In this document: one piece after another, positions 30,091-63,286 of the stretch
Numbering within the stretch: position 1 is the first letter of the stretch
Layout: every line of letters starts with the position of its first letter
DNA from: Balanoglossus misakiensis
Taxonomy: Eukaryota; Animalia; Hemichordata
Assembly (NCBI GenBank): GCA_040954595.2
Contig: CM082586.2
Span: forward strand, 9,765,337-9,829,336
Length of the DNA: 64,000 nt
Direction of reading: 5' to 3'
Notes under the pieces: generated by a model
The model's input: only the letters and a program-made list of their open reading frames with translations
Told to the model about the DNA's origin: nothing
Database searches by the model: none
Position numbers and translations under genes: made by a program

Positions 30091-30299
30091 GTAATACTAA
30101 CATATCATAGAATGCAATGCATCGAACATTATTGATTTGCATGTTACGTATAGTTCTATAGTGGATGTAGAATCCCGGAGAGACTAATATGATCACATGG
30201 TACATTTCATAAACAGAATACTTTAATTTCTTGTAAATATGAAATACAGTGAATAAATAAAATGTATCGGCAGTGCAAAATGTAAACCAACAGTGGAGT

Positions 30300-32007: not shown

Positions 32008-32350
32008 TGTAAACAAAACATTCAGGATAAGGTAGAATTACGAATACACTGTTAAAGAACATGTATGACACCTTTGGTTTTGGTGTTTAATGTATGATTC
32101 ATTTGCAACATGCTTCATTTCGTAATGACAGATGAAAAAACAAATCGATTATTGACCATCGACTGCAATCCCAACTGAACGGAGGCCATATGTTGGACGA
32201 TGTCACGGTTGTTTCCTTTGATCTTTGCCGAAAATTTCTGTCCACGCCCATCTTGTCTATTTCGCTACGGGGTCTTATTCAAAACCTAATCACGTAGCGA
32301 TAATATTCCGCCAGGTGTTATCTCATTAATATTCATAAGAATGACAAAGG

Positions 32351-32357
32351 TATAAAA
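32351..32357 (+). promoter_or_regulatory. Candidate TATA box upstream of the putative P-transposase start (ATG 32426)
   Basis: TATAAAA ~70 bp upstream of AACATGG. Confidence 0.35.
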
Positions 32358-33119
32358 GAAGAACAGGGCAGAAGACTCTGTGTCATTTCCTCGCACAGTC
32401 AGGGCAGTCTCCACCGGTATAGAACATGGCTTCGAGACAAGACGTAGCTGCTCAGAAAACCACTTCCAACGTAGCTGTAGACGCTGCCTCACGAAGTTCG
32501 GCAGCCCAGCAGCCAACTCGGGGAACGGCCACTGATTCTGATATCGCACAAGCTTTTGTGGACGCCCATCGAATTACACCTTACGCGAGTCAAGGCGTAA
32601 AGAACAACATAGATTTCCACAGCACATACCTGCTACAACAGAAAGTCTAGAAATCATGAATGTCTTTCTTCAAAGAGTGCATATCTGCACAGGTGTTCCC
32701 AAGCGCAGCCATTATCATATCATGTTCGCCAAAACCATTACTGTTGAGACTAATCACGGTGAAACTGCGGCTGGTAACTACAAGCAGATCATCAGGGATG
32801 TTCGCTGTTCCCTCCTCCTTCCTGTGACCAGTTATGGCCGTACTTGCCGAAGATGCCAAAAAACGTACGACTACGTCAGCCAAAAAACAACCAACAAAGT
32901 GTCCCAACAGGTAATACTAACATATCATAGAATGCAATGCATCGAACATTATTGATTTGCATGTTACGTATAGTTCTATAGTGGATGTAGAATCCCGGAG
33001 AGACTAATATGATCACATGGTACATTTCATAAACAGAATACTTTAATTTCTTGAAAATATGAAATACAGTGAATAAATAAAATGTATCGGCAGTGCAAAA
33101 TGTAAACCAACAGTGGAGT

Positions 33120-36100: not shown

Positions 36101-38222
36101 GTTTTTTTGCTAAATATTTATTTCAACCATCCAATGCTCCTAAATAATGTCGGTCATTTTACTCCCCATTCTTCGTACTGTGTTACTAATTTTCTGGGGT
36201 TTATCTGGAATGCACTTTTGCGTGTTTTTTAAGTTACGGGAGGGGTGATATGAACTACGGTCGTATGTTCACTTGCCTTCATCTTTAGACTCGTACGTCT
36301 TCATATCTCCCGGCATTTCAAAAAGTCTTTCTGCGTTGAACATTTCAACTTCCAAATTGGTTGAGAATACATGGGTTGCTCTCGCACAATCTTGAAATGG
36401 CCGGGAGAGACTCTTGAGCAATTATCTGTGTCTTCGCTAACACTTCCTATGGCGGTTTCTCGTACGGCTTTTACCATAAGGGGATCTGTTTGTCGATGTA
36501 CTTGCTGCAGGTTTATATGATGCAGGTGACGGAACAGGTGCGACATGAAACAGAATTCACCGCTGTCTTCATATCGTGGGTTAGCTACTGGCGGCAATTG
36601 ATAGAAGTCACCACATGCAACAATTTGTATGCCACCGTAGTAATCTCTGGACCCTCTGATTTTTCTGCAGATTTCATCAACTTGCTCGTGTATTTTCTTG
36701 CTTATCTGCGGAATTATGTACAGCATATTATTTATAATGCATAAATGATCATAAAACCGACACATGTGCAGGTGTATAAAAAATCTAAAATTTGCAGCTT
36801 GTGACTCTTTATAATAAAAACGTAATACAACTAGTGCAAGCTTCAATATTCATATTTACCATCGATATCTCATCAATTATGAGTATATCCGTGGGCAAAA
36901 TCATATTCTTCGCAGCATAAAAAGCGGGATCCGTGTTTAGCAAGTCGCATAATTCTTGCGTAAGATATATTCCATCCTTCATTTAAATAATTATGAAAAA
37001 GGATAAAGTTAACCACAAGATGTCGACATCACATCGAACATAACTTAAAACGAAGGAAAGCAGGGGACGGCATTATCTCAGTAATAAAGGCCGAAGGATA
37101 ACATTATCTCTATACTAAATGGCGAAGGACAGTAATATTTCTATATTTTAGGCCGAAGGACATCATTGTCTCATTCCCACGGAGGAAAATAGTTTTGTAG
37201 TACATTATTACCCCACTTGAACATCGGAATAGAATTGACGAATAAAATAAAAAACTGTGCATGGGGGAATTGTCTGTGTGGTCTGCGGATTTGTATACAG
37301 AGTCTATGGCGGAGACGAAGACTTCGAATCAATTCAAACTACTTTATTACTACTTCATTACTATAGCTACGTAAGCTGGTATGCTACAGAAAAGTGTGTC
37401 AACTCAAATGAGAGAAGTGGAAAGACCGGATGCATTCAGAGTCAATCCCCAGAAAGTGCTTCAAAGTGGTCTCAAAACAAGTACTAATGAAAAGGAATTA
37501 GCGACATGTTATATAGCTCATCTTGGCGGGAAAGTTTATAAAAGCTAGATTGTTATTGGCTAATAAATGAGTCATCCGGAGACTTTGTTTTAGTACACAT
37601 CCAGGTTATTTATGTGATCAGAGTTTATGATATCACTGTCAAGATCTTAACTAGAGTGTCATGTTTACACGAATCGAAACAGCTGTTCTAAACAAACACT
37701 GCCTTAGAGGAAATACACGTGAATTTGTTCGTCCAAAATTCGCCCTTCAGTAAAAAGATGCCGTTCTTCTCCATTTCGTATAGAGATAATGATGTCCTTC
37801 GCCCTAAAATATGGAGATATTACTGTCATTCGCCCTTAAGCATACAGATAATCGTGTCCTTCGCTTTCCTTTGTTTTAGTCTCACACTTACATCGGTTTT
37901 ATTGTCCAAAGAGGCCCCCGCATCCGTGGACATCATTGGCGATCATTGGGACTTTGTCATGTTCAGTTTTGATGAAATCTTTCGAGAGTACGCTTTGGTG
38001 AAACCAATCATGAAAACTTACCCGCAAGCCTGCCCAAGCATGTACAGTCATTGCCCGAGGGTACTGCAAAGTTGCTATCCCAGTGGAGGCTGTCACGTAG
38101 ATGCTTTTTTTTTTTCCAGAATAACGGTTGTGAATATTCTTGACGAGAGTAGTTTTTCCTGTACCGGCTTGGCCTGTTATCAGGATATTGTGTCCGAAAT
38201 TCAAGAGGTTTATAGCATCCAT
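33120..38222 (-). pseudogene. PIF1-family SF1B helicase fused to an acidic linker and C-terminal PHD finger, multi-exon, frameshifted
   Basis: ITGQAGTGKT, TASTGIA, TVHAWAG, LIIDEISM, GGIQIVACGDFYQLPPV, VHRQ, QIPLKLAFALTYHKAQ, FQPGQLSVGLGRV. Splice phases link it to the acidic exon and the PHD exon. Frameshifts near 36420, 35790 and 34395. Confidence 0.82.
37043..37880. mobile_element. Possible MITE with subrepeated inverted arms in PIF1 intron 1
   Basis: GAAGGAC/ATTATCTC subrepeats at 37050-37170 are inverted at ~37760-37880. Confidence 0.45.
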
Positions 38223-38911
38223 TGTGTACTTGAGTCCAGTGAATTTGTCAAAAATCTTTAAAAATACTATAGATGCTCAAAACTCGGAATCGGACACGGA
38301 GATCGGAAACGGATCAACTGCGTAATCAACGGATCATGTGATGATGTGATCGCGGCCAATCGGTAAAGGCTGCCGCACACGAGAGAAATAAGCTGAGCAA
38401 AAAGTCATTCGAGGAATTTTGCTCAGCAAGTTTCTCTCGTGTGCGGTGGACTTGAGTAATTTTCCTCGCGAGGAAAAAAAATATCAAACATGTTGAATAT
38501 CGTGATCCGCGGCGCAAAAGATCAGGAAAAATCGCCCGCACACGGAAGGAAAATTTATATTCTCACCCAAATTGAAAGTTATGTTTGTGAGCGAAAAAAC
38601 TTGAAGTGCATTTTCTGCAAAGTTCAAGTTCATGGGTCTACACCATAAATTACGGCCGTACAAACCCGTGAGATAATACTAGTAAAAGTTGTATGTTCGT
38701 ATTTTTTTTTTTTATTGCATTGGGAGGGGGGGGGGGGGCAACGCTACAACCATAATGATATTTGTAAATTTACAAAAGACAAATGGCGATGGAACATAAT
38801 ATGTAAACGCCGAGAAAAATCACTACCATAGAGAAATCACGATGTTTTATATGTGCTAATATAGTATGTACATCAACATAATTTAACACCTAATCTTTCT
38901 ACATATTGCAG

Positions 38912-40534
38912 GATACTGGCAAGATGACTAGCACTGAAACGAAAAGTGATAGTTTGTGTGAAGTGCTGCAAACCCTGCCAGAAAATGCAGTCAGCCTGAT
39001 TTCGTCGATGGTTAAAAATAGCACAGTGAAACCAACCAGCAGAAGATGGGATAGAGATGTAATAAAATTCGGCCTACACTTGTGGCTTAGAACGCCACAG
39101 GGCTATGAAGACATAAGGAAAAGCGGCCATCTTCTACTCCCCTCCCCTAGACGTCTGCAGATGTACAAGAACATAATCGATAAAAAATCTGGGTTTCATG
39201 ACGACATATTTCAGTGGATGAAAGACACGGCTGCAGAGAAAAACATCCTCCCATCTGGAGGCTCGGTTGGTATCATACTAGATGAGATGGCCATCCAGGA
39301 GGATCTACAGATTGACACCAGAGGTGGCATTAGTAAACTAGTTGGTGATGTAGACCTCGGAGACGAATGTACCAGTATGGATGTGATGAAGGCTGGATAC
39401 AAGAAAGGAGTACTTGCGAATCATACTCTACAATTTCAATTTCTGGGCTTTACCGGTTTCACCTTCCCATTTGCGCACTTTCCAACTCGCCAAGTTCAGG
39501 CCTATCATCTTTACGTTCTATTTTGGGAAGCTGTTGATAAATTAACAGACTGGGGCTTTACTGTTGATTTAGCAATGTTCGATGGTGCCGCAGCAAATCG
39601 TTCTTTCCTGAAAATGAATTTCAACGGCAACCCACTTGATGAAAAGATGCACGCCCCGAACCGCCTCTGCAGTCCTTCTGACACCGTTATAATGTGTATG
39701 GATCCAAACATGTAATTAAGAGACTAAGGAACAGTGTACTGAAGAGTGGTGAAGGCGATACCTATCCCAGGCATTTGCGATGGAATGGTGTTTATATTGA
39801 ATGGCAACACTGGCGCGATTCCTACAAGTGGGACACAGAAGTTAACCCGGAAATGTGTAGAATCAACCACAGGTTAACAACCGAACACATTTTCCCGGGA
39901 ATGTCCGCAAAAATGCGAAACCATCTCGCTGAGCAGGTCCTCGACAGTGAAATGCTCCACCTAATGGTTTGCTTCCAGCAAAGTCTTCCCGATCCAGATA
40001 TAGCCAGGCACGACTGAATGGCACAATCGAATTCTTACGCCACACCAGTCAAATCGCGTCATTTTTCACTGACGACAGGGAAGTAAAAGGGTGTGATGAT
40101 GGGAGGCTGTTGCAGTTACTCGTGGCAAGAGATTGGTTCCAATCGTGGGAGAAAGACGAGTTGGCAGACGAGACAACAACCAAAAGCAAGAGGGCCAGAA
40201 GACTGATGTCACATGAGACACGTGAAGACATTGTGTTTTGCCTGACCGCAGTCGTCGAGATTTGTGAGAAGAGGGCGGCTAAGTCGCTGACTACACTCCC
40301 GAGTCGACTCAACAGTGACGTCGTTGAGAACTTTTTATGCCAGCAGAGGACGAATCATAACGGCTCGAACACCAACCCTACGTACCTCCAATATACAAAG
40401 GGGTGAACAGTGTTTTGCTCAGTCAAACGAGCCGTACGTCGGCTAAGAAAGCCAATGCTGGTATAAGGGCGGCACAGCCTTTTAATTTCACTACACCCAA
40501 ACCTTTAAAGGTTCAGAAAATAAGTCAAAATTGA
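38912..40534 (+). pseudogene. P-element superfamily (THAP9-like core) transposase with three frameshifts
   Basis: LPSPRRLQ, IILDEMAIQEDL, FDGAAANR, DP/KHVIKRLRN, KMRNHLA, RLNSDVVENFLCQQR, NPTYLQY. Frame changes at ~39710, ~40010 and ~40400. Splice acceptor at 38911. Confidence 0.88.
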
Positions 40535-45590: not shown

Positions 45591-45830
45591 ATATAATGAA
45601 TTATATATAAATAAGTGATTTCTAAACCATGAAAAAATGCACTCGCGCCGTTTGTCAACTTATTGTTTAACGCAAACTCATTATTTAACGCAAACTCATT
45701 ATTTAAGGCCTGTTCACACAACCCCTTGCATTTGGATCATTATGTACACATATAGTCCCCACACGTGAACAAGAAATGCACATTACTTGCGGTCATTTCA
45801 TTTTTATTATACTCATATATACTTATATAT

Positions 45831-48800
45831 CTGTAATGGAAATGGAGAAAGTACCTTATATTTTCTGTAAAATAGACATTTAATTGGCAAGCCGTCCTGC
45901 ATCAATTATTAATTGTGTACATGCACTAAAGCGCCCTCACTGCTGGGTGTGTTGTATGGTCTTTAACCCTGTTTCAAATTAGAGTACTTTCTGCAATTTC
46001 AAGACAGATCTTACGTGCCATTGGAGAGCTCCATTGACTGGTCATTCATACTGTTTTCATTCATTCATTGCGGCATCAATATATTTTATCTATTCTAGCC
46101 AAAGAGCTTGGCACCTGTTGAAATGAACTCATCTGCTGTGGGCCAGTTTATTGGTGGCAGTTGAGCTGAGGAGAGCACCTTCCTTCCCGGCACGCCACCA
46201 AGTAAAGTTCCACGCCGCCCCCCACAGATGCCAGCATTCATTCATGCGAGTGAGTGTAATTGCAAATTTGCCTATTCTAGATCTGTAATGGAAATGGAGA
46301 AAGTACCTTATATTTTCTGTAAAATAGACATTTAATTGGCAAGCCGTCCTGCATCAATTATTAATTGTGTACATGCACTAAAGCGCCCTCACTGCTGGGT
46401 GTGTTGTATGGTCTTTAACCCTGTTTCAAATTAGAGTACTTTCTGCAATTTCAAGACAGATCTTACGTGCCATTGGAGAGCTCCATTGACTGGTCATTCA
46501 TACTGTTTTCATTCATTCATTGCGGCATCAATATATTTTATCTATTCTAGCCAAAGAGCTTGGCACCTGTTGAAATGAACTCATCTGCTGTGGGCCAGTT
46601 TATTGGTGGCAGTTGAGCTGAGGAGAGCACCTTCCTTCCCGGCACGCCACCAAGTAAAGTTCCACGCCGCCCACCACAGATGCCAGCATTCATTCATGCG
46701 AGTGAGTGTAATTGCAAATTTGCCTATTCTAGAATCTTACGTGCCATTGGAGAGCTCCATTGACTGGTCATTCATACTGTTTTCATTCATTCATTGCGGC
46801 ATCAATATATTTTATCTATTCTAGCCGAAGAGCTTGGCACCTGTTGAAATGAACTCATCTGCTGTGGGCCAGTTTATTGGTGGCAGTTGAGCTGAGGAGA
46901 GCACCTTTCTTCCCGGCACGCCACCAAGTAAAGTTCCACGCCGCCCACCACAGATGCCAGCATTCATTCATGCGAGTGAGTGTAATTGCAAATTTGCCTA
47001 TTCTTACGTGCCATTGGAGAGCTCCATTGACTGGTCATTCATACTGTTTTCATTCATTCATTGCGGCATCAATATATTTTATCTATTCTAGCCAAAGAGC
47101 TTGGCACCTGTTGAAATGAACTCATCTGCTGTGGGCCAGTTTATTGGTGGCAGTTGAGCTGAGGAGAGCACCTTCCTTCCCGGCACGCCACCAAGTAAAG
47201 TTCCACGCCGCCCACCACAGATGCCAGCATTCATTCATGCGAGTGAGTGTAATTGCAAATTTGCCTATTCTAGATCTGTAATGGAAATGGAGAAAGTACC
47301 TTATATTTTCTGTAAAATAGACATTTAATTGGCAAGCCGTCCTGCATCAATTATTAATTGTGTACATGCACTAAAGCGCCCTCACTGCTGGGTGTGTTGT
47401 ATGGTCTTTAACCCTGTTTCAAATTAGAGTACTTTCTGCAATTTCAAGACAGATCTTACGTGCCATTGGAGAGCTCCATTGACTGGTCATTCATACTGTT
47501 TTCATTCATTCATTGCGGCATCAATATATTTTATCTATTCTAGCCAAAGAGCTTGGCACCTGTTGAAATGAACTCATCTGCTGTGGGCCAGTTTATTGGT
47601 GGCAGTTGAGCTGAGGAGAGCACCTTCCTTCCCGGCACGCCACCAAGTAAAGTTCCACGCCGCCCACCACAGATGCCAGCATTCATTCATGCGAGTGAGT
47701 GTAATTGCAAATTTGCCTATTCTAGATCTGTAATGGAAATGGAGAAAGTACCTTATATTTTCTGTAAAATAGACATTTAATTGGCAAGCCGTCCTGCATC
47801 AATTATTAATTGTGTACATGCACTAAAGCGCCCTCACTGCTGGGTGTGTTGTATGGTCTTTAACCCTGTTTCAAATTAGAGTACTTTCTGCAATTTCAAG
47901 ACAGATCTTACGTGCCATTGGAGAGCTCCATTGACTGGTCATTCATACTGTTTTCATTCATTCATTGCGGCATCAATATATTTTATCTATTCTAGCCAAA
48001 GAGCTTGGCACCTGTTGAAATGAACTCATCTGCTGTGGGCCAGTTTATTGGTGGCAGTTGAGCTGAGGAGAGCACCTTCCTTCCCGGCACGCCACCAAGT
48101 AAAGTTCCACGCCGCCCACCACAGATGCCAGCATTCATTCATGCGAGTGAGTGTAATTGCAAATTTGCCTATTCTAGAATCTTACGTGCCATTGGAGAGC
48201 TCCATTCATACTGTTTTCATTCATTCATTGCGGCATCAATATATTTTATCTATTCTAGCCGAAGAGCTTGGCACCTGTTGAAATGAACTCATCTGCTGTG
48301 GGCCAGTTTATTGGTGGCAGTTGAGCTGAGGAGAGCACCTTCCTTCCCGGCACGCCACCAAGTAAAGTTCCACGCCGCCCACCACAGATGCCAGCATTCA
48401 TTCATGCGAGTGAGTGTAATTGCAAATTTGCCTATTCTAGAATCTTACGTGCCATTGGAGAGCTCCATTCATACTGTTTTCATTCATTCATTGCGGCATC
48501 AATATATTTTATCTATTCTAGCCGAAGAGCTTGGCACCTGTTGAAATGAACTCATCTGCTGTGGGCCAGTTTATTGGTGGCAGTTGAGCTGAGGAGAGCA
48601 CCTTCCTTCCCGGCACGCCACCAAGTAAAGTTCCACGCCGCCCACCACAGATGCCAGCATTCATTCATGCGAGTGAGTGTAATTGCAAATTTGCCTATTC
48701 TTACGTGCCATTGGAGAGCTCCATTGACTGGTCATTCATACTGTTTTCATTCATTCATTGCGGCATCAATATATTTTATCTATTCTAGCCAAAGAGCTTG

Positions 48801-51800
48801 GCACCTGTTGAAATGAACTCATCTGCTGTGGGCCAGTTTATTGGTGGCAGTTGAGCTGAGGAGAGCACCTTCCTTCCCGGCACGCCACCAAGTAAAGTTC
48901 CACGCCGCCCACCACAGATGCCAGCATTCATTCATGCGAGTGAGTGTAATTGCAAATTTGCCTATTCTAGATCTGTAATGGAAATGGAGAAAGTACCTTA
49001 TATTTTCTGTAAAATAGACATTTAATTGGCAAGCCGTCCTGCATCAATTATTAATTGTGTACATGCACTAAAGCGCCCTCACTGCTGGGTGTGTTGTATG
49101 GTCTTTAACCCTGTTTCAAATTAGAGTACTTTCTGCAATTTCAAGACAGATCTTACGTGCCATTGGAGAGCTCCATTGACTGGTCATTCATACTGTTTTC
49201 ATTCATTCATTGCGGCATCAATATATTTTATCTATTCTAGCCAAAGAGCTTGGCACCTGTTGAAATGAACTCATCTGCTGTGGGCCAGTTTATTGGTGGC
49301 AGTTGAGCTGAGGAGAGCACCTTCCTTCCCGGCACGCCACCAAGTAAAGTTCCACGCCACCCACCACAGATGCCAGCATTCATTCATGCGAGTGAGTGTA
49401 ATTGCAAATTTGCCTATTCTAGAATCTTACGTGCCATTGGAGAGCTCCATTGACTGGTCATTCATACTGTTTTCATTCATTCATTGCGGCATCAATATAT
49501 TTTATCTATTCTAGCCGAAGAGCTTGGCACCTGTTGAAATGAACTCATCTGCTGTGGGCCAGTTTATTGGTGGCAGTTGAGCTGAGGAGAGCACCTTCCT
49601 TCCCGGCACGCCACCAAGTAAAGTTCCACGCCGCCCACCACAGATGCCAGCATTCATTCATGCGAGTGAGTGTAATTGCAAATTTGCCTATTCTTACGTG
49701 CCATTGGAGAGCTCCATTGACTGGTCATTCATACTGTTTTCATTCATTCATTGCGGCATCAATATATTTTATCTATTCTAGCCAAAGAGCTTGGCACCTG
49801 TTGAAATGAACTCATCTGCTGTGGGCCAGTTTATTGGTGGCAGTTGAGCTGAGGAGAGCACCTTCCTTCCCGGCACGCCACCAAGTAAAGTTCCACGCCG
49901 CCCACCACAGATGCCAGCATTCATTCATGCGAGTGAGTGTAATTGCAAATTTGCCTATTCTAGATCTGTAATGGAAATGGAGAAAGTACCTTATATTTTC
50001 TGTAAAATAGACATTTAATTGGCAAGCCATCCTGCATCAATTATTAATTGTGTACATGCACTAAAGCGCCCTCACTGCTGGGTGTGTTGTATGGTCTTTA
50101 ACCCTGTTTCAAATTAGAGTACTTTCTGCAATTTCAAGACAGATCTTACGTGCCATTGGAGAGCTCCATTGACTGGTCATTCATACTGTTTTCATTCATT
50201 CATTGCGGCATCAATATATTTTATCTATTCTAACCAAAGAGCTTGGCACCTGTTGAAATGAACTCATCTGCTGTGGGCCAGTTTATTGGTGGCAGTTGAG
50301 CTGAGGAGAGCACCTTCCTTCCCGGCACGCCACCAAGTAAAGTTCCACGCCGCCCACCACAGATGCCAGCATTCATTCATGCGAGTGAGTGTAATTGCAA
50401 ATTTGCCTATTCTAGATCTGTAATGGAAATGGAGAAAGTACCTTATATTTTCTGTAAAATAGACATTTAATTGGCAAGCCGTCCTGCATCAATTATTAAT
50501 TGTGTACATGCACTAAAGCGCCCTCACTGCTGGGTGTGTTGTATGGTCTTTAACCCTGTTTCAAATTAGAGTACTTTCTGCAATTTCAAGACAGATCTTA
50601 CGTGCCATTGGAGAGCTCCATTGACTGGTCATTCATACTGTTTTCATTCATTCATTGCGGCATCAATATATTTTATCTATTCTAGCCAAAGAGCTTGGCA
50701 CCTGTTGAAATGAACTCATCTGCTGTGGGCCAGTTTATTGGTGGCAGTTGAGCTGAGGAGAGCACCTTCCTTCCCGGCACGCCACCAAGTAAAGTTCCAC
50801 GCCGCCCACCACAGATGCCAGCATTCATTCATGCGAGTGAGTGTAATTGCAAATTTGCCTATTCTAGATCTGTAATGGAAATGGAGAAAGTACCTTATAT
50901 TTTCTGTAAAATAGACATTTAATTGGCAAGCCGTCCTGCATCAATTATTAATTGTGTACATGCACTAAAGCGCCCTCACTGCTGGGTGTGTTGTATGGTC
51001 TTTAACCCTGTTTCAAATTAGAGTACTTTCTGCAATTTCAAGACAGATCTTACGTGCCATTGGAGAGCTCCATTGACTGGTCATTCATACTGTTTTCATT
51101 CATTCATTGCGGCATCAATATATTTTATCTATTCTAGCCAAAGAGCTTGGCACCTGTTGAAATGAACTCATCTGCTGTGGGCCAGTTTATTGGTGGCAGT
51201 TGAGCTGAGGAGAGCACCTTCCTTCCCGGCACGCCACCAAGTAAAGTTCCACGCCGCCCACCACAGATGCCAGCATTCATTCATGCGAGTGAGTGTAATT
51301 GCAAATTTGCCTATTCTAGATCTGTAATGGAAATGGAGAAAGTACCTTATATTTTCTGTAAAATAGACATTTAATTGGCAAGCCGTCCTGCATCAATTAT
51401 TAATTGTGTACATGCACTAAAGCGCCCTCACTGCTGGGTGTGTTGTATGGTCTTTAACCCTGTTTCAAATTAGAGTACTTTCTGCAATTTCAAGACAGAT
51501 CTTACGTGCCATTGGAGAGCTCCATTGACTGGTCATTCATACTGTTTTCATTCATTCATTGCGGCATCAATATATTTTATCTATTCTAGCCAAAGAGCTT
51601 GGCACCTGTTGAAATGAACTCATCCTTCCCGGCACGCCACCAAGTAAAGTTCCACGCCGCCCACCACAGATGCCAGCATTCATTCATGCGAGTGAGTGTA
51701 ATTGCAAATTTGCCTATTCTAGAATCTTACGTGCCATTGGAGAGCTCCATTGACTGGTCATTCATACTGTTTTCATTCATTCATTGCGGCATCAATATAT

Positions 51801-53376
51801 TTTATCTATTCTAGCCGAAGAGCTTGGCACCTGTTGAAATGAACTCATCTGCTGTGGGCCAGTTTATTGGTGGCAGTTGAGCTGAGGAGAGCACCTTCCT
51901 TCCCGGCACGCCACCAAGTAAAGTTCCACGCCGCCCACCACAGATGCCAGCATTCATTCATGCGAGTGAGTGTAATTGCAAATTTGCCTATTCTTACGTG
52001 CCATTGGAGAGCTCCATTGACTGGTCATTCATACTGTTTTCATTCATTCATTGCGGCATCAATATATTTTATCTATTCTAGCCAAAGAGCTTGGCACCTG
52101 TTGAAATGAACTCATCTGCTGTGGGCCAGTTTATTGGTGGCAGTTGAGCTGAGGAGAGCACCTTCCTTCCCGGCACGCCACCAAGTAAAGTTCCACGCCG
52201 CCCACCACAGATGCCAGCATTCATTCATGCGAGTGAGTGTAATTGCAAATTTGCCTATTCTAGATCTGTAATGGAAATGGAGAAAGTACCTTATATTTTC
52301 TGTAAAATAGACATTTAATTGGCAAGCCGTCCTGCATCAATTATTAATTGTGTACATGCACTAAAGCGCCCTCACTGCTGGGTGTGTTGTATGGTCTTTA
52401 ACCCTGTTTCAAATTAGAGTACTTTCTGCAATTTCAAGACAGATCTTACGTGCCATTGGAGAGCTCCATTGACTGGTCATTCATACTGTTTTCATTCATT
52501 CATTGCGGCATCAATATATTTTATCTATTCTAGCCAAAGAGCTTGGCACCTGTTGAAATGAACTCATCTGCTGTGGGCCAGTTTATTGGTGGCAGTTGAG
52601 CTGAGGAGAGCACCTTCCTTCCCGGCACGCCACCAAGTAAAGTTCCACGCCGCCCACCACAGATGCCAGCATTCATTCATGCGAGTGAGTGTAATTGCAA
52701 ATTTGCCTATTCTAGATCTGTAATGGAAATGGAGAAAGTACCTTATATTTTCTGTAAAATAGACATTTAATTGGCAAGCCGTCCTGCATCAATTATTAAT
52801 TGTGTACATGCACTAAAGCGCCCTCACTGCTGGGTGTGTTGTATGGTCTTTAACCCTGTTTCAAATTAGAGTACTTTCTGCAATTTCAAGACAGATCTTA
52901 CGTGCCATTGGAGAGCTCCATTGACTGGTCATTCATACTGTTTTCATTCATTCATTGCAGCATCAATATATTTTATCTATTCTAGCCAAAGAGCTTGGCA
53001 CCTGTTGAAATGAACTCATCTGCTGTGGGCCAGTTTATTGGTGGCAGTTGAGCTGAGGAGAGCACCTTCCTTCCCGGCACGCCACCAAGTAAAGTTCCAC
53101 GCCGCCCACCACAGATGCCAGCATTCATTCATGCGAGTGAGTGTAATTGCAAATTTGCCTATTCTAGAATTCTTACGTGCCATTGGAGAGCTCCATTGCC
53201 TGGTCAATCATACTGTTTTCATTCATTCATTGTGGCATCAATATATTTTATCTATTCTAGCCGAAGAGCTTGGCACCTGTTGAAATGAACTCATCTGCTG
53301 TGGGCCAGTTTATTGGTGGCAGTTGAGCAGAGGAGAGCACCTTCTTTCCCGGCACGCCACCAAGTAAAGTTCCACG
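45831..53376 (+). repeat. Left terminal array: 177-bp TIR-bearing module B + ~275-bp module A (452-bp period), with B absent at 10 junctions
   Basis: B starts at 45831, 46283, 47276, 47728, 48973, 49966, 50418, 50870, 51322, 52266 and 52718. Copies are near-identical. Confidence 0.95.
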
Positions 53377-53763
53377 TGCATTCCTGGCCCTGGTTTTATT
53401 TATGTTTACAGACAATATTGCATTTTTGTACAAGTATTTTAATCAACTATAAATTTTGAATGTGTCATTTACCTGAACCGGTCATGTTGACCAGAATGAT
53501 ACATTTCTGCCTTCACTCACCCTATAAATATGTGATTGAGACATAGGTCATTTGCATAAGCTAACATACCAGAAAGTAAGCATATCTGTTGTTTTCCCTG
53601 TGTCACTGCCATCAAAGTAAAAATTAGACGTTGTGTAGAGCAAACTCCAATTTTTTGTTCTCAATAAACATGGATGAATTACATAGAATGTGTTTGTTGT
53701 TTACAGTCTTTAAATGACACATTAGATTATGCACTTTACAAAACGTTTCTGAGAAACAAGTGA

Positions 53764-54264
53764 CTAACTAGTTTCTTTCCACTGTGGCCAACGTGGTTCA
53801 CTGTTTGTGTCAGAATCTCTCTGTTTTGCAAGGATTTTGAAATCATAGTGGTGACATGCATAGTGAAAATCAGCTACTTTCAAATGTCTGTCATGTTCAT
53901 GCTGTAATTGAATTTTCAAAGCTGGGCTGGCGTGTTTTTTCTTATTTACATAAGTATCACACTTTATACATGTATCTTCATGGGGTTTTTTGAGTCCCGT
54001 ATTTAGGTCCTCTCTCACAATTTTACGAAATATCGTATAACTGACAGTTGTTCTTCCCAGAAGAGATTGGTTGGTTATGAACTCTCGGTGTAACTGCGAT
54101 ATACTGTGGTCCGGCGCCAGGTACGGTTTAAATCGAGGATTCCTGCAGTAGTGAGATTCTACAATTATGTGCCTGCGTACGTGTTCAGTGATATCAGTCA
54201 GCAAATTTGGATTGAGTTTCCGACGATGCCCTTTGTGTCGGCCCCTTGCATCTGGCATCAGACC
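53764..54264 (-). pseudogene. 5'-truncated duplicate of the Sola N-half gene (902-bp tandem duplication 53363-54264 / 54265-55166)
   Basis: ORF 53764-54258 is nearly identical to the C-terminal 164 aa of 54666-55622. Confidence 0.9.
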
Positions 54265-54665
54265 AGTAAAGTTCCATGTGCATTCCTGGCCCTGGTTTTA
54301 TTTATGTTTACAGACAATATTGCATTTTTGTACAAGTATTTTAATCAACTATAAATTTTGAATGTGTCATTTACCTGAACCGGTCATGTTGACCAGAATG
54401 ATACATTTCTGCCTTCACTCACCCTATAAATATGTGATTGAGACATAGGTCATTTGCATAAGCTAACATACCAGAAAGTAAGCATATCTGATGTTTTCCC
54501 TGTGTCACTGCCATCAAAGTAAAAATTAGACGTTGTGTAGAGCAAACTCCAATTTTTTGTTCTCAATAAACATGGATGAATTACATAGAATGTGTTTGTT
54601 GTTTACAGTCTTTAAATGACACATTAGATTATGCACTTTACAAAACGTTTCTGAGAAACAAGTGA

Positions 54666-55622
54666 CTAACTAGTTTCTTTCCACTGTGGCCAACGTGGTT
54701 CACTGTTTGTGTCAGAATCTCTCTGTTTTGCAAGGATTTTGAAATCATAGTGGTGACATGCATAGTGAAAATCAGCTACTTTCAAATGTCCGTCATGTTC
54801 ATGCTGTAATTGAATTTTCAAAGCTGGGCTGGCGTGTTTTTTCTTATTTACATAAGTATCACACTTTATACATGTATCTTCATGGGGTTTTCTGAGTCCC
54901 GTATTTAGGTCCTCTCTCACAATTTTACGAAATATCGTATAACTGACAGTTGTTCTTCCCAGAAGAGATTGGTTGGTTATGAACTCTCGGTGTAACTGCG
55001 ATATACTGTGGTCCGGCGCCAGGTACGGTTTAAATCGAGGATTCCTGCAGTAGTGAGATTCTACAATTCTGTGCCTGCGTACGTGTTCAGTGATATCAGT
55101 CAGCAAATTTGGATTGAGTTTCCGACGATGCCCTTTGTGTCGGCCCCTTGCATCTGGCATCAGACCAGTTGAACAGTGCATCATTTTGCTTAGAACGGTT
55201 CTAGTCCGCCTCTCACTAATGCCAAATAATTTCAGGAATGCATTTTTGCAGACAGTAACCGTTTCACCGCCTTCATTCACCAGGTGATAACGAACCGATT
55301 TCTTGTGTGACTTCATCTGTATATCCATCAGTTTGTAGAGCATCAAGTTCTGTTCATTATACACGCGACCATCAAAATATTTTCTCGTGGTGCCTAAAAC
55401 ATGCGTACTCCCAAGCTTCCGCAGACAATTCCCTTGAACGCAGGCGCATTCCAAGGAAAGACTGTCAATATCTGGAAAAGGGCGATTTTTCCTTGGTTTT
55501 TGTCTCGGACACGTCTTTTTAGAATTCCTACGTGGCTTGTTGGCTCGAGCTGACAGTTCGGTTCTGCGTTGCTGCCACACAGGAATGGGTTCCCACGCAT
55601 AAGCAACTCCCCGGCAGGCCAT
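54666..55622 (-). CDS. Sola1-type transposase N-terminal half (Cys/His-rich DNA-binding region), 318 aa
   Basis: ACCATGG start and an uninterrupted frame. Motifs CACVQGNC, VCKNAFLKLFGIS..R, DARGRH, ESHYCR, YL, SY..FRKI, KPHEDTCIKCD, H..HL, as I recognise them from Sola1 N-termini. Confidence 0.8.
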   Translation of the reverse strand: MACRGVAYAWEPIPVWQQRRTELSARANKPRRNSKKTCPRQKPRKNRPFPDIDSLSLECACVQGNCLRKLGSTHVLGTTRKYFDGRVYNEQNLMLYKLMDIQMKSHKKSVRYHLVNEGGETVTVCKNAFLKLFGISERRTRTVLSKMMHCSTGLMPDARGRHKGHRRKLNPNLLTDITEHVRRHRIVESHYCRNPRFKPYLAPDHSISQLHREFITNQSLLGRTTVSYTIFRKIVREDLNTGLRKPHEDTCIKCDTYVNKKKHASPALKIQLQHEHDGHLKVADFHYACHHYDFKILAKQRDSDTNSEPRWPQWKETS

Positions 55623-55785
55623 GGTCACAGCTGAAGTATTTGTTCAAGTACTGACTGACTAAACGCGGCATGGAACAAACGAACGAACGACTTCACGTTC
55701 GGAAAAAAAATCGTTGCGAGCTGTTGGGTGCCTCTATAGTTGTCGGCAACCGTTCTTTTTTATTGCTAAACAATGCTGTCAGAGC

Positions 55786-56799
55786 ATGGAAGGTGTGGTG
55801 GAAAACGAACAGAGGTTTTGTACGACCAACGATTGGATGGTGCTACATATGGACTTCCACAAGTCATTGCCGGTTCCTAAACTCAGCTCTGAAGACTTTT
55901 ACTTTAAATCGAAATTGCAAATGAAGCTCCTTGGAATTTACAACGGGACAACGGAAAAGATGCATTGTTATGTATGGACAGAGCTCGATAGCAGAAAGTC
56001 TCCCGATGAAGTTATTACCTGTCTAAATCACTTTTTTTATAACTCGGGTGTGACCAGCAGACATGCAGTTATTTACAGCGACAACTGCCGTGCCGAATTC
56101 AAGTGTGGGAAGTTAATGTTTTACTATGACTATCTGTTACGAAAGGGCGTGTTTCGACGAATTGACTATAAAACTCTTGTGGCTGGACACACGTACTCCA
56201 CCTGTGACCGAGTTTTTGCGTCCATTGAAAGGCATGCAAGTCGTTTCCAGAGTATAGAGACACCTCACGATTGGACATCTGTGATTCGAGGATCTTCTCT
56301 GAATGGGAACATTGGAGTTACGGAGATGACTCACAGAGACTTTTTCAATTATTCTGATTTCCTGAAAAATGAGTACGTTGTGCGTTATGCAGATACAAAC
56401 AATGTAACTTTTTACTACCAAGCCATGCACTATTTTAATTTTGGAGAAGGAGAAAGGCTTGATACCGACGGCAACCTCAGAACATTTAGTCATGCAGATA
56501 AAGTTTGGGTGAGAACATCTCTAGATCCAAGCGAGACCCCGATTGTAGTCGACTTTAGAAAGAAGAAGCAGAACCGGCGTTTACAAGATTGTACGCTGAA
56601 CAAACTTTATCAGGAACGTCGACCACTGGCGAGCAAAGTTTGGCGGGATCTTCAGAGTTTAGCCAAAAATTACCTGTCTCCGGAGGCAATAGAATTTTAT
56701 AGGAATCTACCGCTTCAGGAGAGTAGTGGCACCTCTGCAGACCCGTACGCCTTTCATGATGATGACGACGACGATGATGATGATATGGGCGGTGGTTGA
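55786..56799 (+). CDS. Sola1-type transposase catalytic (RNase H-fold DDD) half, 337 aa
   Basis: AGCATGG start. LHMDFHKSLPVP..FYFKSKL, YVWTE...SPDEVITCL, YSDNC, GHTYSTCDRVFASIE: all three Asp present. Acidic tail. Confidence 0.85.
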   Translation: MEGVVENEQRFCTTNDWMVLHMDFHKSLPVPKLSSEDFYFKSKLQMKLLGIYNGTTEKMHCYVWTELDSRKSPDEVITCLNHFFYNSGVTSRHAVIYSDNCRAEFKCGKLMFYYDYLLRKGVFRRIDYKTLVAGHTYSTCDRVFASIERHASRFQSIETPHDWTSVIRGSSLNGNIGVTEMTHRDFFNYSDFLKNEYVVRYADTNNVTFYYQAMHYFNFGEGERLDTDGNLRTFSHADKVWVRTSLDPSETPIVVDFRKKKQNRRLQDCTLNKLYQERRPLASKVWRDLQSLAKNYLSPEAIEFYRNLPLQESSGTSADPYAFHDDDDDDDDDMGGG

Positions 56800-56960
56800 A
56801 CAAACTGTCCTTTTCATGACGACAGTGATTTTGGATATTTGATGTGCGTGCACAGTTTATATGTAATATTTTCACACGAACGAGTTTTGACTGAATTTGA
56901 TTAAAGAATGTACTCGATAATTAACAAATGTGCTGAATCGTGGTTATTATGTTGTTAATT

Positions 56961-56993
56961 TTTGTTTGTTTGTTTGTTTGTTTGTTTGTTTGT
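56961..56993. repeat. (TTTG)n microsatellite
   Basis: Direct reading. Confidence 0.9.
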
Positions 56994-57189
56994 AAACAAT
57001 TTCCGTTCATTCAACTGGCTACAAAGTTGGATTTTTGTACTGGGAAGCGATAAACTCGCACATCAAAACCGGGGAGACTCGATCATTTTTCCCTGCAGGT
57101 AGCCTGAAAAGCACCCGGGCAGAGATTACGTCATATATGGTCCACTTTAATACGAAATTATGCAAATGTGACATATCACGGAAACGGCG

Positions 57190-57199
57190 TATATAAAAG
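57190..57199 (+). promoter_or_regulatory. Candidate TATA box of the wHTH-SET gene
   Basis: TATATAAAAG ~90 bp upstream of AACATGG (ATG 57291). Confidence 0.5.
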
Positions 57200-57290
57200 C
57201 GACCCTGGGCTATTGTTCGGAATGCGTCATCGACGAGAGAGTGACTGATAATTCTTCTACCTCGAGTCAACCATTCTGTATATACTGAAC

Positions 57291-58616
57291 ATGGCTAGCT
57301 GGCGCAGGAAGAGACAAGGCAATGTGCGGTCTGTAATCAACGAACGGCACCGCTCAGTTCAGTGTCCCTTTCTTCAAAAGTGGATCGGTGAGCAATTGGT
57401 ATTTTCAGGTCGTTCAGAGGATGAAGTCCAGTCCAGTACTGTATTTGAGAGCTACAAATGTTGGGTTGAAAACTATTCGTCGGCGGACAATCAAGTAATG
57501 ATTATGGTTACTAAAGCTCGATTTTTCAAGGTGAGAATGATCGCATTTTTCTTCCCCCCCCCCTCCCTCCCCCAAGGGACTCGTTTTCTGTCTCTTTTAA
57601 ACCTGTAACTTAACGAAAAGGAAGTTTTTCACATATCTCTTTGTTGACACTATAGCAATTTGGAGCGCGGATGCTTCAAGAGAATAGCGTTACCAAATCA
57701 AAGTCGGCCGGGGTTAATATTTATAGAGGTGTTCGTCTGAAAGCTGGTTCGCGAAGAATCTCAACGGGGAAACCTGAGCACAGTGTACTTCAGACCAGGG
57801 CAAGGGCATTTCTTGATGACGCCAGCGTGACCGTTCCGATCGAGGTAAGAATGGTGTTTTGTTTGGACTAGGACAATAGAACGTTGCAATGAGTGTGTCA
57901 ATGGGTGTCCAAGTGCAAACGTGGTCGGCTTCTGTCCACAAATGCCATTAATTTTAGGCAGGATTTATAAAATTGTCAATGAAGAATACAAAAATGAAAA
58001 ACAATAGTTAATAGCAAACGGGTAGGATTGCAAGGGCTTGTAAAACGGTACACACTGTACCAGGAAGTTTGCAACACTAATGAAGAATGTATATGATATA
58101 TTTAGGTGAGAACTGTTCGCGATCGCCGGGACGCAGGACGGTGCGCGTTTTCGACGAGGGATCTTCAAGCCTGGAACGTCGTCTGCGAATACCGGGGCAC
58201 GGTTATTAGCGTTGAAGAAGCTAGTCGGCGTGATGAACTTTACAGGGCAGAGGGGAAACGACCACGCATGTTTCATCTCTACATTGGAAAGAGACACGTT
58301 GTGTGAGTGTATCACTTAGTCGAATATATGGTCATATATTGCAAAGCATCTGTCGAAATAGAAAACGTAATATTGTCTATATTTTCCTCATTAACGCAGC
58401 ATTGACGGATACGATGTCCCAGCCGGTGAAGAAAATTTAGCGGGCCTAATAAATCACAGTCAGCAGAACGCCAACTTGGTACCGGTTCGGATCGGAGAGC
58501 GCCTGGTTTTCTTTGCAACCAGGAATCTTTGTCAGGGAGTAGAGCTTTTGTATGATTACGGTGACGGGGGTGAAGAGGATTTCTTCAGTGGTTCTCAAAC
58601 TTTTCCTGAAAATTAA
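57291..58616 (+). CDS. Winged-helix (RFX/D5-C-terminal-like) + PR-Set7/SETD8-like SET-domain protein, 4 exons, 280 aa
   Basis: Exons 57291-57530, 57656-57844, 58106-58302 and 58400-58616, all GT-AG, total 843 nt in frame. SET motifs GRCAFSTR, VCEYRG, RDELY, IDG, GLINHS, FFATRNL..G.ELLYDYGD. Confidence 0.85.
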
Positions 58617-59518
58617 GGCATTAACACATCAACGCTTCGGGATGTCGTAACGGCGGCAAGGCGGGGGGGGGGGGCGTGAAAATGTTTGTATCAGGAACAA
58701 AATTCCCCTGCAAATCACCTTGATCCGGGTGGGTGGACTATTCGCGACAAATGTTGAAATCATACAAAGCATTTTACTTAATTAACCCATTTTTTTTTCA
58801 TTTATTTGTTTACAGTTTACAACGTCATAGAGAAGTTGAACTAGAGACTGGATCAGCGTGGGTGACACCATAGTACACCAATGTTTTCTTCCGTTTGAAT
58901 CAATTGTAATTTAAAACTGAGATTGCCTAACGCTTTCCCAGATTTTTTTAACCACTGAGAAACTGTGGGTTTTTTTCTGGGTTTTGGTGCGAGGTGATCT
59001 CAGTCAGTGGTGTTAATTTAATTAATCATTTTATTTTCCTATTTACGTCGACTGAAATGTATTTTGATAGGTGATAGTCATACCATAAAAAAATCTTACG
59101 GCGCGACTGCCAAAATGTACATTTATTTGTCCGTTCCAAGTTATTTTGTGTATGTGTGATGGGTGCCGGTGACTGTGCAGGGTTGATTTCCCTAGAGCGA
59201 CTGTTATATTCGTTTTCCAACGATGATGAATTTACATGTTATTTGCTTGGCATTTTGACGCAGAGACACTTCTGAAAACACAAACCTATTTATTATGCCA
59301 CGGGTGTAAATTGATCACATTAAAAGAGGCTTTAGACGTTTGCCGCGAGCTCCTGGTGGGCAGAATCTTGTCAGCCCAAATTTGACTATAAGTACATAGC
59401 CAATGATATGACGCTCTCCCACATCCTTCGCCGCGCCTTTTCGCTGATTTACAGCATCTTGCGTAAACACTGTCATTTGATCTTGCTTGGCAGAAGTCAA
59501 CTTGCTCTATACTACATT

Positions 59519-59884
59519 ATGGCGGCCAAGCTCAACTGCATATCAGATAATGCCAAGGAGCGTTTGAGAGGCATCCTCGCCAGAAGGAGTCGCGTTTCCG
59601 GTGACTGTGTGCTCTGGACGGGTGCAGCTTGTCGAAACGGCTATGGCTCTATTACGTTCAAAGATGAGAACACTCTAACCGCCTATGTCCATCACATTGC
59701 ACTCCTAATTAACGGAGTGCAATTGGTGGGCAGGCGGTTAGAGTGTTCTCATCTTTGCAACGAAAAGCTATGCATCCGCCCAGAGCACATTGTCCAGGAA
59801 ACGCGACTCCTAAACATTTCACGAAAGACGTGCTTTAAATCCCCAAAAGGGGAGTGTCACCACGATCCCAGGTGCCTAAGGTGA
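59519..59884 (+). CDS. Small His-Me finger (His-Cys box, I-PpoI-like) endonuclease, 121 aa
   Basis: CVLWTGA..RNGYG, YVHH, SHLCNEKLCIRPEHIVQETRLLNISRKTC, CHHDPRC. The His of SHLC and the downstream Asn are retained. A splice donor at 59881 could alter the last residues. Confidence 0.88.
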   Translation: MAAKLNCISDNAKERLRGILARRSRVSGDCVLWTGAACRNGYGSITFKDENTLTAYVHHIALLINGVQLVGRRLECSHLCNEKLCIRPEHIVQETRLLNISRKTCFKSPKGECHHDPRCLR

Positions 59885-60870
59885 GTAATCCTCTTCTCAT
59901 TTGATATGTATTGTGTGACCCTGCAGTTGAAACGCTTTCATCAATAATTTGCGGCGCGTGGGTAATCTCGGTGTTATTGACAATGCAGCCGGCCCAAACA
60001 TTTTTAAATTAACACTGTTTCTGACTGTATTAACGAAATGTCCAATTTGCAAGTAGCCTATAGACAACCCTTTTGAATGAGTTTTGTCTCGTTGAGATTT
60101 TATACATAAGGAACAATCTAGATTTATTTTAGAAGACACTGTTCTTTTAAAACAGCTAGCATAATACAGCTAAATTTCGGAATTTCCGGACAATTTTCGG
60201 AATTCCTTTTAAATTTGAGAAATTTTTCATCAGATATAAGTGTTACTATTTATTGGGCATGTTTTTATCATTGTTTACTTTTTAAGGTCATTCTCATCCC
60301 CCCCCCCCCCAAAAAAAAAAGCCGCTTTAGGCTTCATGTTCAGTAAAAAATCTGGAAAGTTCAGCTGAATTTTACACTGATCACACATTTTTGGGAAGGT
60401 CTGGCGCAAAATAAAGGATGACAAATGTAAATCTAATGTCACATTTGTAAACCTCTAAGTATTGTACACTCATTCTATTAAGTATATGCAAATAGTACGG
60501 ATAATTTTTTCGGAATGTGGAATTCCGAAATTAGTTCGGAACGTGTTAGCAGTGAAGAGATCACCACTGAGGGTTGGAAGGCCTTGCCAGAAATTAACGC
60601 GTAAAGTACGCCCTCACAGGCCATGTAAACAAGGTCAAATAAGGCCGTCTGGCAAACGAATGATTAATTCAACGCGCCATTTGAGCCGAGCTGAGTTGGT
60701 CTGAGTTGCGTATCACACAGACTTAGGCTGAATGTCAGTGGAGTAACCAGTCCGTTTTAGATTTACCAATGATGTGAATTTAATTTCTTCACCCAGAAAA
60801 ACAGAACACAACTTGTCTGCAACATGATGCTGGAGGTGACACATGACAGAGAAGTGGATCCGCGTTGTCA

Positions 60871-61200
60871 ACACAGATGCCAGCATTCAAAAGGGGAGTG
60901 CCACCTGCTAAAATCAACTCATCTGCTGTTGGCCCATTTTACCTGTGGCAACTGTTCAGAGGAGACAACGTTTATTCCGTGCAAGCCAACACGCAATGTT
61001 GGGGTCTACCTGTCAACACAGATGCAAGCATTCATGTGAGTGAGTATCAGGACTGACCTTGTATTTGCTGAATAATTCATAATGCCTATTTTAGAATTCT
61101 TAGAGGCATTTGGAGTTCATTGCCTGGTCAACCAAACTACACCCCTTAACAGCTGAAACAAAATGCGTATTGTGTTCATTCATTCATTGCATCAATATAT
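60871..61200 (+). repeat. Highly diverged module-A relic inside the element
   Basis: CACAGATGCCAGCATTCA, AACTCATCTGCTG, GCCTATTTTAGAATTCTTA and CATTCATTCATTGCATCAATATAT match module A. Confidence 0.75.
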
Positions 61201-61515
61201 ATAGGCAACATGAGTATCAAGTAGCACTATTTGTTTACGATTGTATTCATGAAAACTTCCCACTAACAATTCCACAGTTAATATTGAACACATTTATCCA
61301 ACAAGGTCAAAAGAAAAAGGGAATCTTCTGGTTCCAAAATACGCCACAAATGTGGGTCAACATACAGTGAAATATTATGGTGCTCAAATATGCAACATAT
61401 CAAATCTGTCTCATCAAAGTCATGCTTTAAAAAAGAATTGAAAAGGTATTATTTATCCATTTGACTGCTGTATTTTCAGAAGGAAAACAAACTGAATTTG
61501 GTTTTTCATGTACAA

Positions 61516-63117
61516 ATATTTTCTGTAAAATAGACATTTAATTGGCAAGCCGTCCTGCATCAATTATTAATTGTGTACATGCACTAAAGCGCCCTCACTG
61601 CTGGGTGTGTTGTATGGTCTTTAACCCTGTTTCAAATTAGAGTACTTTCTGCAATTTCAAGACAGATCTTACGTGCCATTGGAGAGCTCCATTGACTGGT
61701 CATTCATACTGTTTTCATTCATTCATTGCGGCATCAATATATTTTATCTATTCTAGCCAAAGAGCTTGGCACCTGTTGAAATGAACTCATCTGCTGTGGG
61801 CCAGTTTATTGGTGGCAGTTGAGCTGAGGAGAGCACCTTCCTTCCCGGCACGCCACCAAGTAAAGTTCCACGCCGCCCACCACAGATGCCAGCATTCATT
61901 CATGCGAGTGAGTGTAATTGCAAATTTGCCTATTCTAGATTCTTACGTGCCATTGGAGAGCTCCATTGACTGGTCATTCATACTGTTTTCATTCATTCAT
62001 TGCGGCATCAATATATTTTATCTATTCTAGCCAAAGAGCTTGGCACCTGTTGAAATGAACTCATCTGCTGTGGGCCAGTTTATTGGTGGCAGTTGAGCTG
62101 AGGAGAGCACCTTCCTTCCCGGCACGCCACCAAGTAAAGTTCCACGCCGCCCACCACAGATGCCAGCATTCATTCATGCGAGTGAGTGTAATTGCAAATT
62201 TGCCTATTCTAGATCTGTAATGGAAATGGAGAAAGTACCTTATATTTTCTGTAAAATAGACATTTAATTGGCAAGCCGTCCTGCATCAATTCTTAATTGT
62301 GTACATGCACTAAAGCGCCCTCACTGCTGGGTGTGTTGTATGGTCTTTAACCCTGTTTCAAATTAGAGTACTTTCTGCAATTTCAAGACAGATCTTACGT
62401 GCCATTGGAGAGCTCCATTGACTGGTCATTCATACTGTTTTCATTCATTCATTGCGGCATCAATATATTTTATCTATTCTAGCCAAAGAGCTTGGCACCT
62501 GTTGAAATGAACTCATCTGCTGTGGGCCAGTTTATTGGTGGCAGTTGAGCTGAGGAGAGCACCTTCCTTCCCGGCACGCCACCAAGTAAAGTTCCACGCC
62601 GCCCACCACAGATGCCAGCATTCATTCATGCGAGTGAGTGTAATTGCAAATTTGCCTATTCTAGATTCTTACGTGCCATTGGAGAGCTCCATTGACTGGT
62701 CATTCATACTGTTTTCATTCATTCATTGCGGCATCAATATATTTTATCTATTCTAGCCAAAGAGCTTGGCACCTGTTGAAATGAACTCATCTGCTGTGGG
62801 CCAGTTTATTGGTGGCAGTTGAGCTGAGGAGAGCACCTTCCTTCCCGGCACGCCACCAAGTAAAGTTCCACGCCGCCCACCACAGATGCCAGCATTCATT
62901 CATGCGAGTGAGTGTAATTGCAAATTTGCCTATTCTAGATCTGTAATGGAAATGGAGAAAGTACCTTATATTTTCTGTAAAATAGACATTTAATTGGCAA
63001 GCCGTCCTGCATCAATTATTAATTGTGTACATGCACTAAAGCGCCCTCACTGCTGGGTGTGTTGTATGGTCTTTAACCCTGTTTCAAATTAGAGTACTTT
63101 CTGCAATTTCAAGACAG
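61516..63117 (+). repeat. Right terminal array: partial B, A, A, B, A, A, B (same orientation as the left array)
   Basis: Complete B at ~62214 and at 62941-63117. The innermost B lacks its left TIR. B-less junctions at ~61940 and ~62665. Confidence 0.93.
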
Positions 63118-63286
63118 ATATACTTATATACTTATATACTTATATATTAGATGAAACACCGAAAAAGGTATCAACTAGTTAGTGATTTTAGCCCGTGATT
63201 GCAATGTTTGATTGAAACGCGAAAAGCTGATCGATAGCTCTACATTGTGGTCTCCGAGGTCAAAGGTTGGCCGGTCATGGCGATAC

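Follow-up and report, generated by a model that had tools for sequence, protein, structure and literature searches.

In a 64,000-nt stretch of the genome of the hemichordate Balanoglossus misakiensis (assembly GCA_040954595.2, contig CM082586.2, positions 9,765,337 to 9,829,336; this whole stretch is referred to as the window), two genes lying back to back appear to be the halves of one Sola1-type DDD transposase. We suggest, with a probability of about 70%, that this transposase was anciently split at a domain boundary, that both halves have been kept by selection in an animal transposon lineage, and that they are likely to reassemble as a two-subunit enzyme.

The two genes and their fused relative

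The front half of the transposase is encoded on the minus strand by an open reading frame (ORF) of 318 aa (55622 to 54666) and the catalytic half on the plus strand by an ORF of 337 aa (55786 to 56799), neither of which contains a stop or break. A spacer of 163 bp (55623-55785, CpG observed/expected ratio 1.35) separates the two ATGs, and both start codons have A at -3 and G at +4, so that the uninterrupted ORFs and strong Kozak contexts described in the initial annotation, which had been made from the sequence alone, are confirmed. The front half is Cys/His-rich and predicted to bind DNA, it ends with a DxCxxC...H helix followed by a short P-x-W tail, and it gave zero Pfam matches at E ≤ 1. 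The plus-strand ORF matched DUF7869 (E = 1e-14), with an RNase H-like catalytic region carrying D23, D99 and D141.

Both halves match a single fused protein of 614 aa (P0033): the front half aligns with residues 138-310 (33% identity, E = 2e-22) and the catalytic half with residues 320-613 (25% identity, E = 1e-29), and the two matched segments stand in the same order with zero overlap, as expected if the two genes are parts of one Sola1-type transposase, which the initial annotation had proposed. D23, D99 and D141 of the window protein align with D320, D396 and D439 of P0033, columns in which Asp is the commonest residue among fused proteins (70/70, 65/65 and 57/58 rows), and the DDD triad is present in every split row covering the respective position (3/3, 4/4 and 5/5). 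In the front half, C251, C254 and H279 are kept in 10 of 10 sequences. Since the front half itself contains H190, C251, C254 and H279 as invariant residues, we abandoned the idea that the catalytic half supplies a fourth zinc ligand.

The position of the cut was located on a predicted structure of P0033 (87-row alignment, mean predicted local distance difference test score (pLDDT) 90.6), i.e. on a model of the fused relative and not of the window protein. This model resembles the cores of retroviral integrase, Mos1 and IstA (best Z 11.3; Z 10.7 at a root-mean-square deviation of 2.7 over 131 residues), and in it a helix at 277-310 is followed by a strand at 314-321 that bears the first catalytic Asp, D320. 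The AlphaFold model of the window catalytic half was built from 5 rows and reached a pLDDT of 47, with integrase rows appearing only at E > 0.01, and sequence searches of the PDB returned nothing below E 0.2. Matches of the front part to winged-helix structures were weak (Z 5.4-5.9) and were not counted. In fused proteins, the distance from the Asp of DxCxxC to the catalytic Asp has a median of 60 residues and a range of 44-68 (n = 34, being 37 proteins chosen from 78 fused matches minus 3 missed by the pattern). The front half retains the long helix and adds a short tail, while 22 residues precede D23 in the catalytic half. Thus, judged on the P0033 alignment and model, the cut is in the turn between the long helix and the first catalytic strand, which bears out the earlier placement between the DxCxxC/H helix and the first catalytic Asp.

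The split in relatives and the orientation of the halves

A full HMMER/phmmer search with the front half gave 2597 matches at E ≤ 0.001, and the following counts refer to the best 150 of these. The catalytic half is present in the same chain in 78 of them, and the remaining 72 comprise 9 complete stand-alone halves and others that were counted as fragments. The top six matches are all stand-alone proteins of 306-347 aa, which align end to end at 34-40% identity and stop 53-72 residues past the DxCxxC Asp; the 3 further complete ones rank lower. Of the 11 front halves that are complete and stand alone (window and the relative L001, described below, counted), 7 have a P-x(-x)-W/F tail before the stop; it was missing in P0005 and three coral-type rows. 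A word-index search with the front half found no relative among 276 candidates, whereas the full HMMER search did find relatives.

Searches with the catalytic half, which were restricted to proteins of 168-590 aa, led to 4 proteins at 41-51% identity. The stand-alone catalytic halves P0001, P0002 and L001 start within a few residues of the start in the window, P0162 starts past an intron position, and P0163 is shorter again. Stand-alone halves are also found among NCBI gene models, namely a catalytic half in Saccoglossus (XP_002739486) and a front half in Oculina (XP_078355980), and shorter front-half pieces were found in Nematostella and Actinostola. P0001 and P0004 each lie on a single 2400-nt contig, and the two contigs are probably identical. 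The nearest Atlas cluster to the catalytic half, taken as a lead only, is a 334-aa DUF7869 cluster of 94 members in which Cnidaria are commonest. One front half, P0050 (HAS44388.1), is 47% identical to that of Oculina and comes from a 4965-nt contig filed under a metagenome-assembled genome of Microscillaceae; this contig in a bacterial bin is probably host DNA.

Trees were computed for each half by quick maximum likelihood with midpoint rooting, and the Shimodaira-Hasegawa-like approximate likelihood ratio test (SH-aLRT) was the sole measure of support. In the front-half tree one branch parts all 16 split-type rows from 34 fused rows (SH-aLRT 100), and in the catalytic-half tree one branch parts all 6 split rows from 34 fused rows (SH-aLRT 100); the two trees are broadly congruent. 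On these sequence comparisons the split is inherited and is a real, conserved fission of a Sola1-type transposase. Moreover, the shared position of the cut in distant relatives makes it likely that the enzyme functions as two subunits.

To the orientation of the halves, one further locus contributes. A metagenome scan yielded one relative, L001 (1-1614), among 165 pattern matches; scans of viral contigs gave no relative among 119, 16 and 180 pattern matches, and the candidate L002 (1 of 13 pattern matches in genome contigs) was dropped as a false match inside an ordinary bacterial gene. Of its front half, L001 contains the final 102 codons, which close with the conserved tail and a stop (307-309); 42 nt after this stop, at 352, the ATG of the catalytic half follows, with strand and frame unchanged. 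The catalytic half of L001 has a GT-AG intron at 427-738 (312 nt), which is not present in the window copy, and reading is open across it for 316 aa. Head-to-head orientation is therefore one of at least two arrangements, as a split and colinear form also exists, and the divergent layout is not supported as a general feature. The argument of the initial annotation that clean starts and stops speak against a random inversion is weakened, because L001 is split yet colinear and such ends can be older than an inversion. As the fused ancestor was colinear, the simplest order drawn from the two loci would be fission first and inversion afterwards. The gene would first have been split in place by a stop and a new ATG, as in L001, and the later inversion of one half would have left a single short promoter region serving both genes.

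Rejoining of the halves as RNA, by trans-splicing in the window and by cis-splicing in colinear relatives, would leave the enzyme as one chain. A possible acceptor had been pointed out in the spacer, where a T-run (55755-55761) and a CAG (55780-55782) do lie upstream of the catalytic ATG, with the CAG in phase with it; in L001, an AG in phase is found four bases past the front-half stop, and both halves share one frame. Such rejoining would remove from the front half its stop and its conserved tail. Furthermore, the final 70 codons of that half contain 10 GT sites, none of which is both in phase with the CAG and past the conserved Y287 and D293: the phase-0 GTs at codons 258 and 282 precede these residues, and the GT nearest the consensus (codon 318) is in phase 1. 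The NCBI gene models also show stand-alone halves. Hence, the acceptor-like signal stands as a feature of the spacer, its use in re-fusing the halves is weakly supported, and we regard a rejoined single chain as improbable. The CAG may instead be the end of an intron in the 5′ untranslated region that removes an upstream ATG at 55670, or it may be due to chance.

Both halves show signs of protein-level constraint. Between the window and L001, 143 of 312 aligned residues are kept in the catalytic half (46%) and 34 of 48 fourfold sites differ, and in the last third of the front half 32 of 77 residues are kept (42%) and 9 of 9 fourfold sites differ. Because residues are kept while synonymous sites are saturated, both halves have been under constraint at the protein level since the split lineages diverged, and the neutral evolution that the initial annotation had named as the contrary outcome is not what we found.

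Copies were followed in two read sets, X1 and X2. In their contigs with a depth of about 750-1560, the front-half stop is accompanied by 367 nt of its own flank, 88 nt of spacer go with the front ATG, and 57 nt of spacer with the catalytic ORF; a variant among copies, with a 4-bp insertion at 55728, lies between the latter two, and no X1/X2 record among those listed covers the entire spacer. None of the 15 joints examined, out of 23, changes strand. Variant X1 contigs at a depth of 23-69 suggest many copies, depth being not equal to copy number. Compared with the deepest X1 contigs, the two ORFs show a single difference in 1971 bases, which turns Ile into Met, whereas 18 of 1987 bases differ on the side of a neighbouring SET-domain gene; this contrast fits stronger constraint and recent recombination equally. 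Two other signals were left unused: runs X3 and X4 hold short pieces of the gene region at a depth of 2-3 and array pieces at 30-96, which we read as carry-over, and many X2 joints to 62212 and 62391 have GATC close by and look like ligation products.

That a chance inversion disrupted this copy of a dead single-ORF transposase, or that the layout is a misassembly, could be suspected from the rearranged surroundings, with their 902-bp duplication and long arrays. This explanation is largely refuted by the identical cut in diverged lineages, where stand-alone halves have the same ends, and by the deep short-read contigs, which tile the layout with none of the examined joints switching strand. 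Thus, the earlier rejection of a random inversion of one copy is upheld, on other grounds than those first given.

The enclosing 17.3-kb element

Both transposase halves are carried by an element of 17.3 kb (45831-63117) that is bounded by ATAT and by terminal arrays. Neither this element, nor the 902-bp duplicate within it, nor the two upstream ATGs in the spacer had been noticed in the initial annotation. The flanking ATAT sequences at 45827-45830 and 63118-63121 are candidates for a target-site duplication and fit AWWT. In the left array (45831-53376), 11 A units, which are 177 bp long and have imperfect inverted ends, are placed end to end with B units of about 263-274 bp, of which 21 starts are present, and the right array (61516-63117), in the same orientation, has a partial A unit followed by 4 B and 2 A units. 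All 37 of the 37 end-to-end joins are spaced by AT, AAT, ATT or AATT, and one A plus one B gives a period of 452 bp. The outer ends of the element agree at 21 of 30 positions and are repeated in the arrays, the termini are CT..AG, and no long perfect inverted repeat is found at the ends. As an observation on the junctions, they resemble the abutted transposon ends of circle junctions. A diverged copy of unit B (67-75%) lies at 60899-61138, immediately inside the right array, and one X2 contig links 60988 back to 54266, hinting at tandem cores or an older layout.

A host gene pair that was domesticated and is no longer a transposon would fit the long-term constraint described above and the presence of the pair's relatives in several animal phyla. 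In contrast, the pair here lies inside a repeat-bounded element with ATAT on either side, X1 contigs covering it reach a depth of about 700-1560 next to variant contigs at 23-69, and a loose X2 end at 63147, which by eye agrees with the left flank 45795-45814 at 18 of 20 positions, suggests a related empty site. We therefore consider domestication very unlikely.

Three further features accompany the split transposase. A tandem duplicate of 902 bp (53363-54267) is a 99.4% copy of 54265-55169 and contains the 3′ half of the front-half gene, its start excluded; 3 of its 5 differences are coding, and all 3 of those change a residue. On the plus strand, a SET-domain gene (57291-58616) has four exons (57291-57530, 57656-57844, 58106-58302 and 58400-58616) with GT-AG introns and is open for 280 aa; its N-terminal half has no Pfam match and, by eye, resembles a winged helix. 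The third is a plus-strand ORF for a His-Me finger endonuclease (59408-59884; PF05551, E = 5e-13), in which the stretch coding for aa 60-135 (59585-59811) forms an imperfect palindrome around a perfect core of 26 bp, the ORF remaining open. As RNA this palindrome folds at -162.6 kcal/mol (z = -18.6, with 0 of 200 shuffles as low), and the hairpin could silence its own mRNA or be a source of small RNAs or of editing.

Elsewhere in the window, positions 1-11766 are taken up by a satellite of about 192-196 bp that is strongly skewed in GC and poor in CpG, and a fragment at 19991-21298 is like the 3′ end of an ORF of a retrotransposon without long terminal repeats (weak zf-RVT match). A duplicated PHD-finger ORF (30300-34613), pieces of a PIF1 helicase (36301-38276) and a broken P-type transposase (38894-40406) were also found; together the pieces at 29533-40406 suggest another decayed large element.

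A probable two-subunit enzyme and known transposons

Several observations weigh against a working pair of subunits or against the breadth of the case. Catalytic halves of the split clade have lost residues that are conserved in fused forms, e.g. Q322, N345 and Q401, and they sit on a long branch (1.33), both of which make altered or lost activity possible. The upstream out-of-frame ATGs at 55670 and 55773, two in the plus-strand spacer, could hinder translation of the catalytic half. Stand-alone homologs were mostly called as ORFs on Logan/ENA contigs and may be exons, with P0162 and P0169 beginning after the intron position seen in L001. Gene orientation is seen at two loci only, the window and L001, and differs between them. 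Runs X1 and X2 come from one sample, possibly the window's own source, and the 4-bp duplication belongs to a single insertion within an A/T-rich repeat in which ATAT can recur by chance.

The first of these points would fit an arrangement in which both proteins are made and no obligate enzyme is formed: the front half would be a regulator binding the element ends, the catalytic half would be weak, acting alone or in another role, and spread would depend on array recombination or on the His-Me nuclease. Diverged catalytic motifs in the split clade are in line with this, as is the pairing of a His-Me nuclease with direct terminal arrays, which PMC9587614 proposes as driving multimer formation in KolobokP. 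On the other side, the DDD triad is intact in every split row covering it, all unit junctions are precise with 2-4 A/T bases, as expected of a transposase acting at the ends, and the trees of both halves are broadly congruent. We regard this arrangement as unlikely, while giving it more weight than rejoining as RNA.

Under the favoured two-subunit enzyme, the front subunit would bind the element ends, its long C-terminal helix and P-x-W tail would dock on the RNase H-like subunit, and the latter would cut and join DNA. To our knowledge, eukaryotic DDE/D transposases are generally single-chain, and the two-protein systems known to us add an unrelated partner. In bacterial IS3 (OrfA/OrfB) and IS1 (InsA/InsB), a DNA-binding front and a catalytic back are encoded in separate ORFs, which are colinear and re-fused through ribosomal frameshifting; such re-fusion is ruled out here because the ORFs lie on opposite strands.

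The working mode would most likely be like that of Harbinger, in which, according to PMC9710019, the transposase interacts with a DNA-binding protein and neither of them is dispensable. As in PIF/Harbinger, two proteins, one catalytic and one DNA-binding, are encoded by the element, and binding between them is predicted here by analogy. In PIF/Harbinger, however, the partner is a separate Myb/MADF gene, whereas here the partner comes from the same ancestral chain as the catalytic half, as its detached front portion, and relatives with the fused chain still exist. No Myb, SANT or MADF domain is found by Pfam in the front half, whose homology is to the N-terminal region of DUF7869 proteins of the fused type.

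The superfamily name used here rests on the target site and on Sola1-like motifs, and no named Sola1 sequence was matched. Sola1 DNA transposons, within the Sola superfamily, were reportedly described by Bao et al. in 2009. The searched part of the PMC3985635 supplement contained no Sola1 record. In PMC3845634, an AWWT target duplication is given as the hallmark of Sola1 and a single ORF of 630 aa is reported. The ATAT in the window fits this duplication, the DDD triad (by alignment) and the RNase H-like fold (by the model of the fused relative) are consistent with the name, and the two halves summed approximate single-chain homologs of 600-700 aa, near the 630-aa ORF in PMC3845634. The differences are that the transposase is encoded by two ORFs on opposite strands instead of a single ORF of about 600-700 aa, that the element measures 17.3 kb versus about 2-3 kb, and that its inverted ends are imperfect and arrayed, with SET and His-Me nuclease genes aboard.

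With KolobokP, as described in PMC9587614, the element shares a transposase of the DDD/E type along with a nuclease of the His-Me finger class between direct terminal units with short inverted ends of their own, a comparable length of these units (the 452-bp A plus B period here, long terminal direct repeats (LTDRs) of about 450 bp there), and multimers. By the same source, KolobokP differs in its TTAA target and RR..YY termini, compared with ATAT and CT..AG here, and in having one Kolobok transposase and a size of 4.0-4.7 kb in oyster. The present element also stands apart from KolobokP in that its DUF7869 transposase is split, that it carries a SET gene and that two unit types make up its arrays.

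Literature searches, with Repbase Reports and subscription journals outside their coverage, found no paper on a split Sola transposase or on DUF7869. A broader proposal, which we put forward tentatively and hold at slightly below even odds, is that animal DNA transposons include a lineage not yet described, ranging from cnidarians to hemichordates, whose naturally heterodimeric transposase arose by fission of a Sola1-type enzyme and whose halves, once separated, can be freely rearranged (colinear or back to back). In the window, the pair would drive a large composite element, one that assembles its own ends into arrays and has on board a gene resembling histone methyltransferases as well as a homing-type nuclease with a long-hairpin mRNA.

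In annotation pipelines, an element of this kind would be recorded as broken, or its two genes as host genes with no relation to each other. The split marks domain limits for a superfamily that has no sequence match among solved structures in our PDB searches, and a natural two-input switch would, if the two-subunit reading is true, become available for genome-engineering tools. If it is true, moreover, a lineage that cut its enzyme at a domain boundary and kept both halves would represent a route from one-chain to two-subunit recombinases, for which the fused, colinear-split and inverted-split states are all on hand for comparison.
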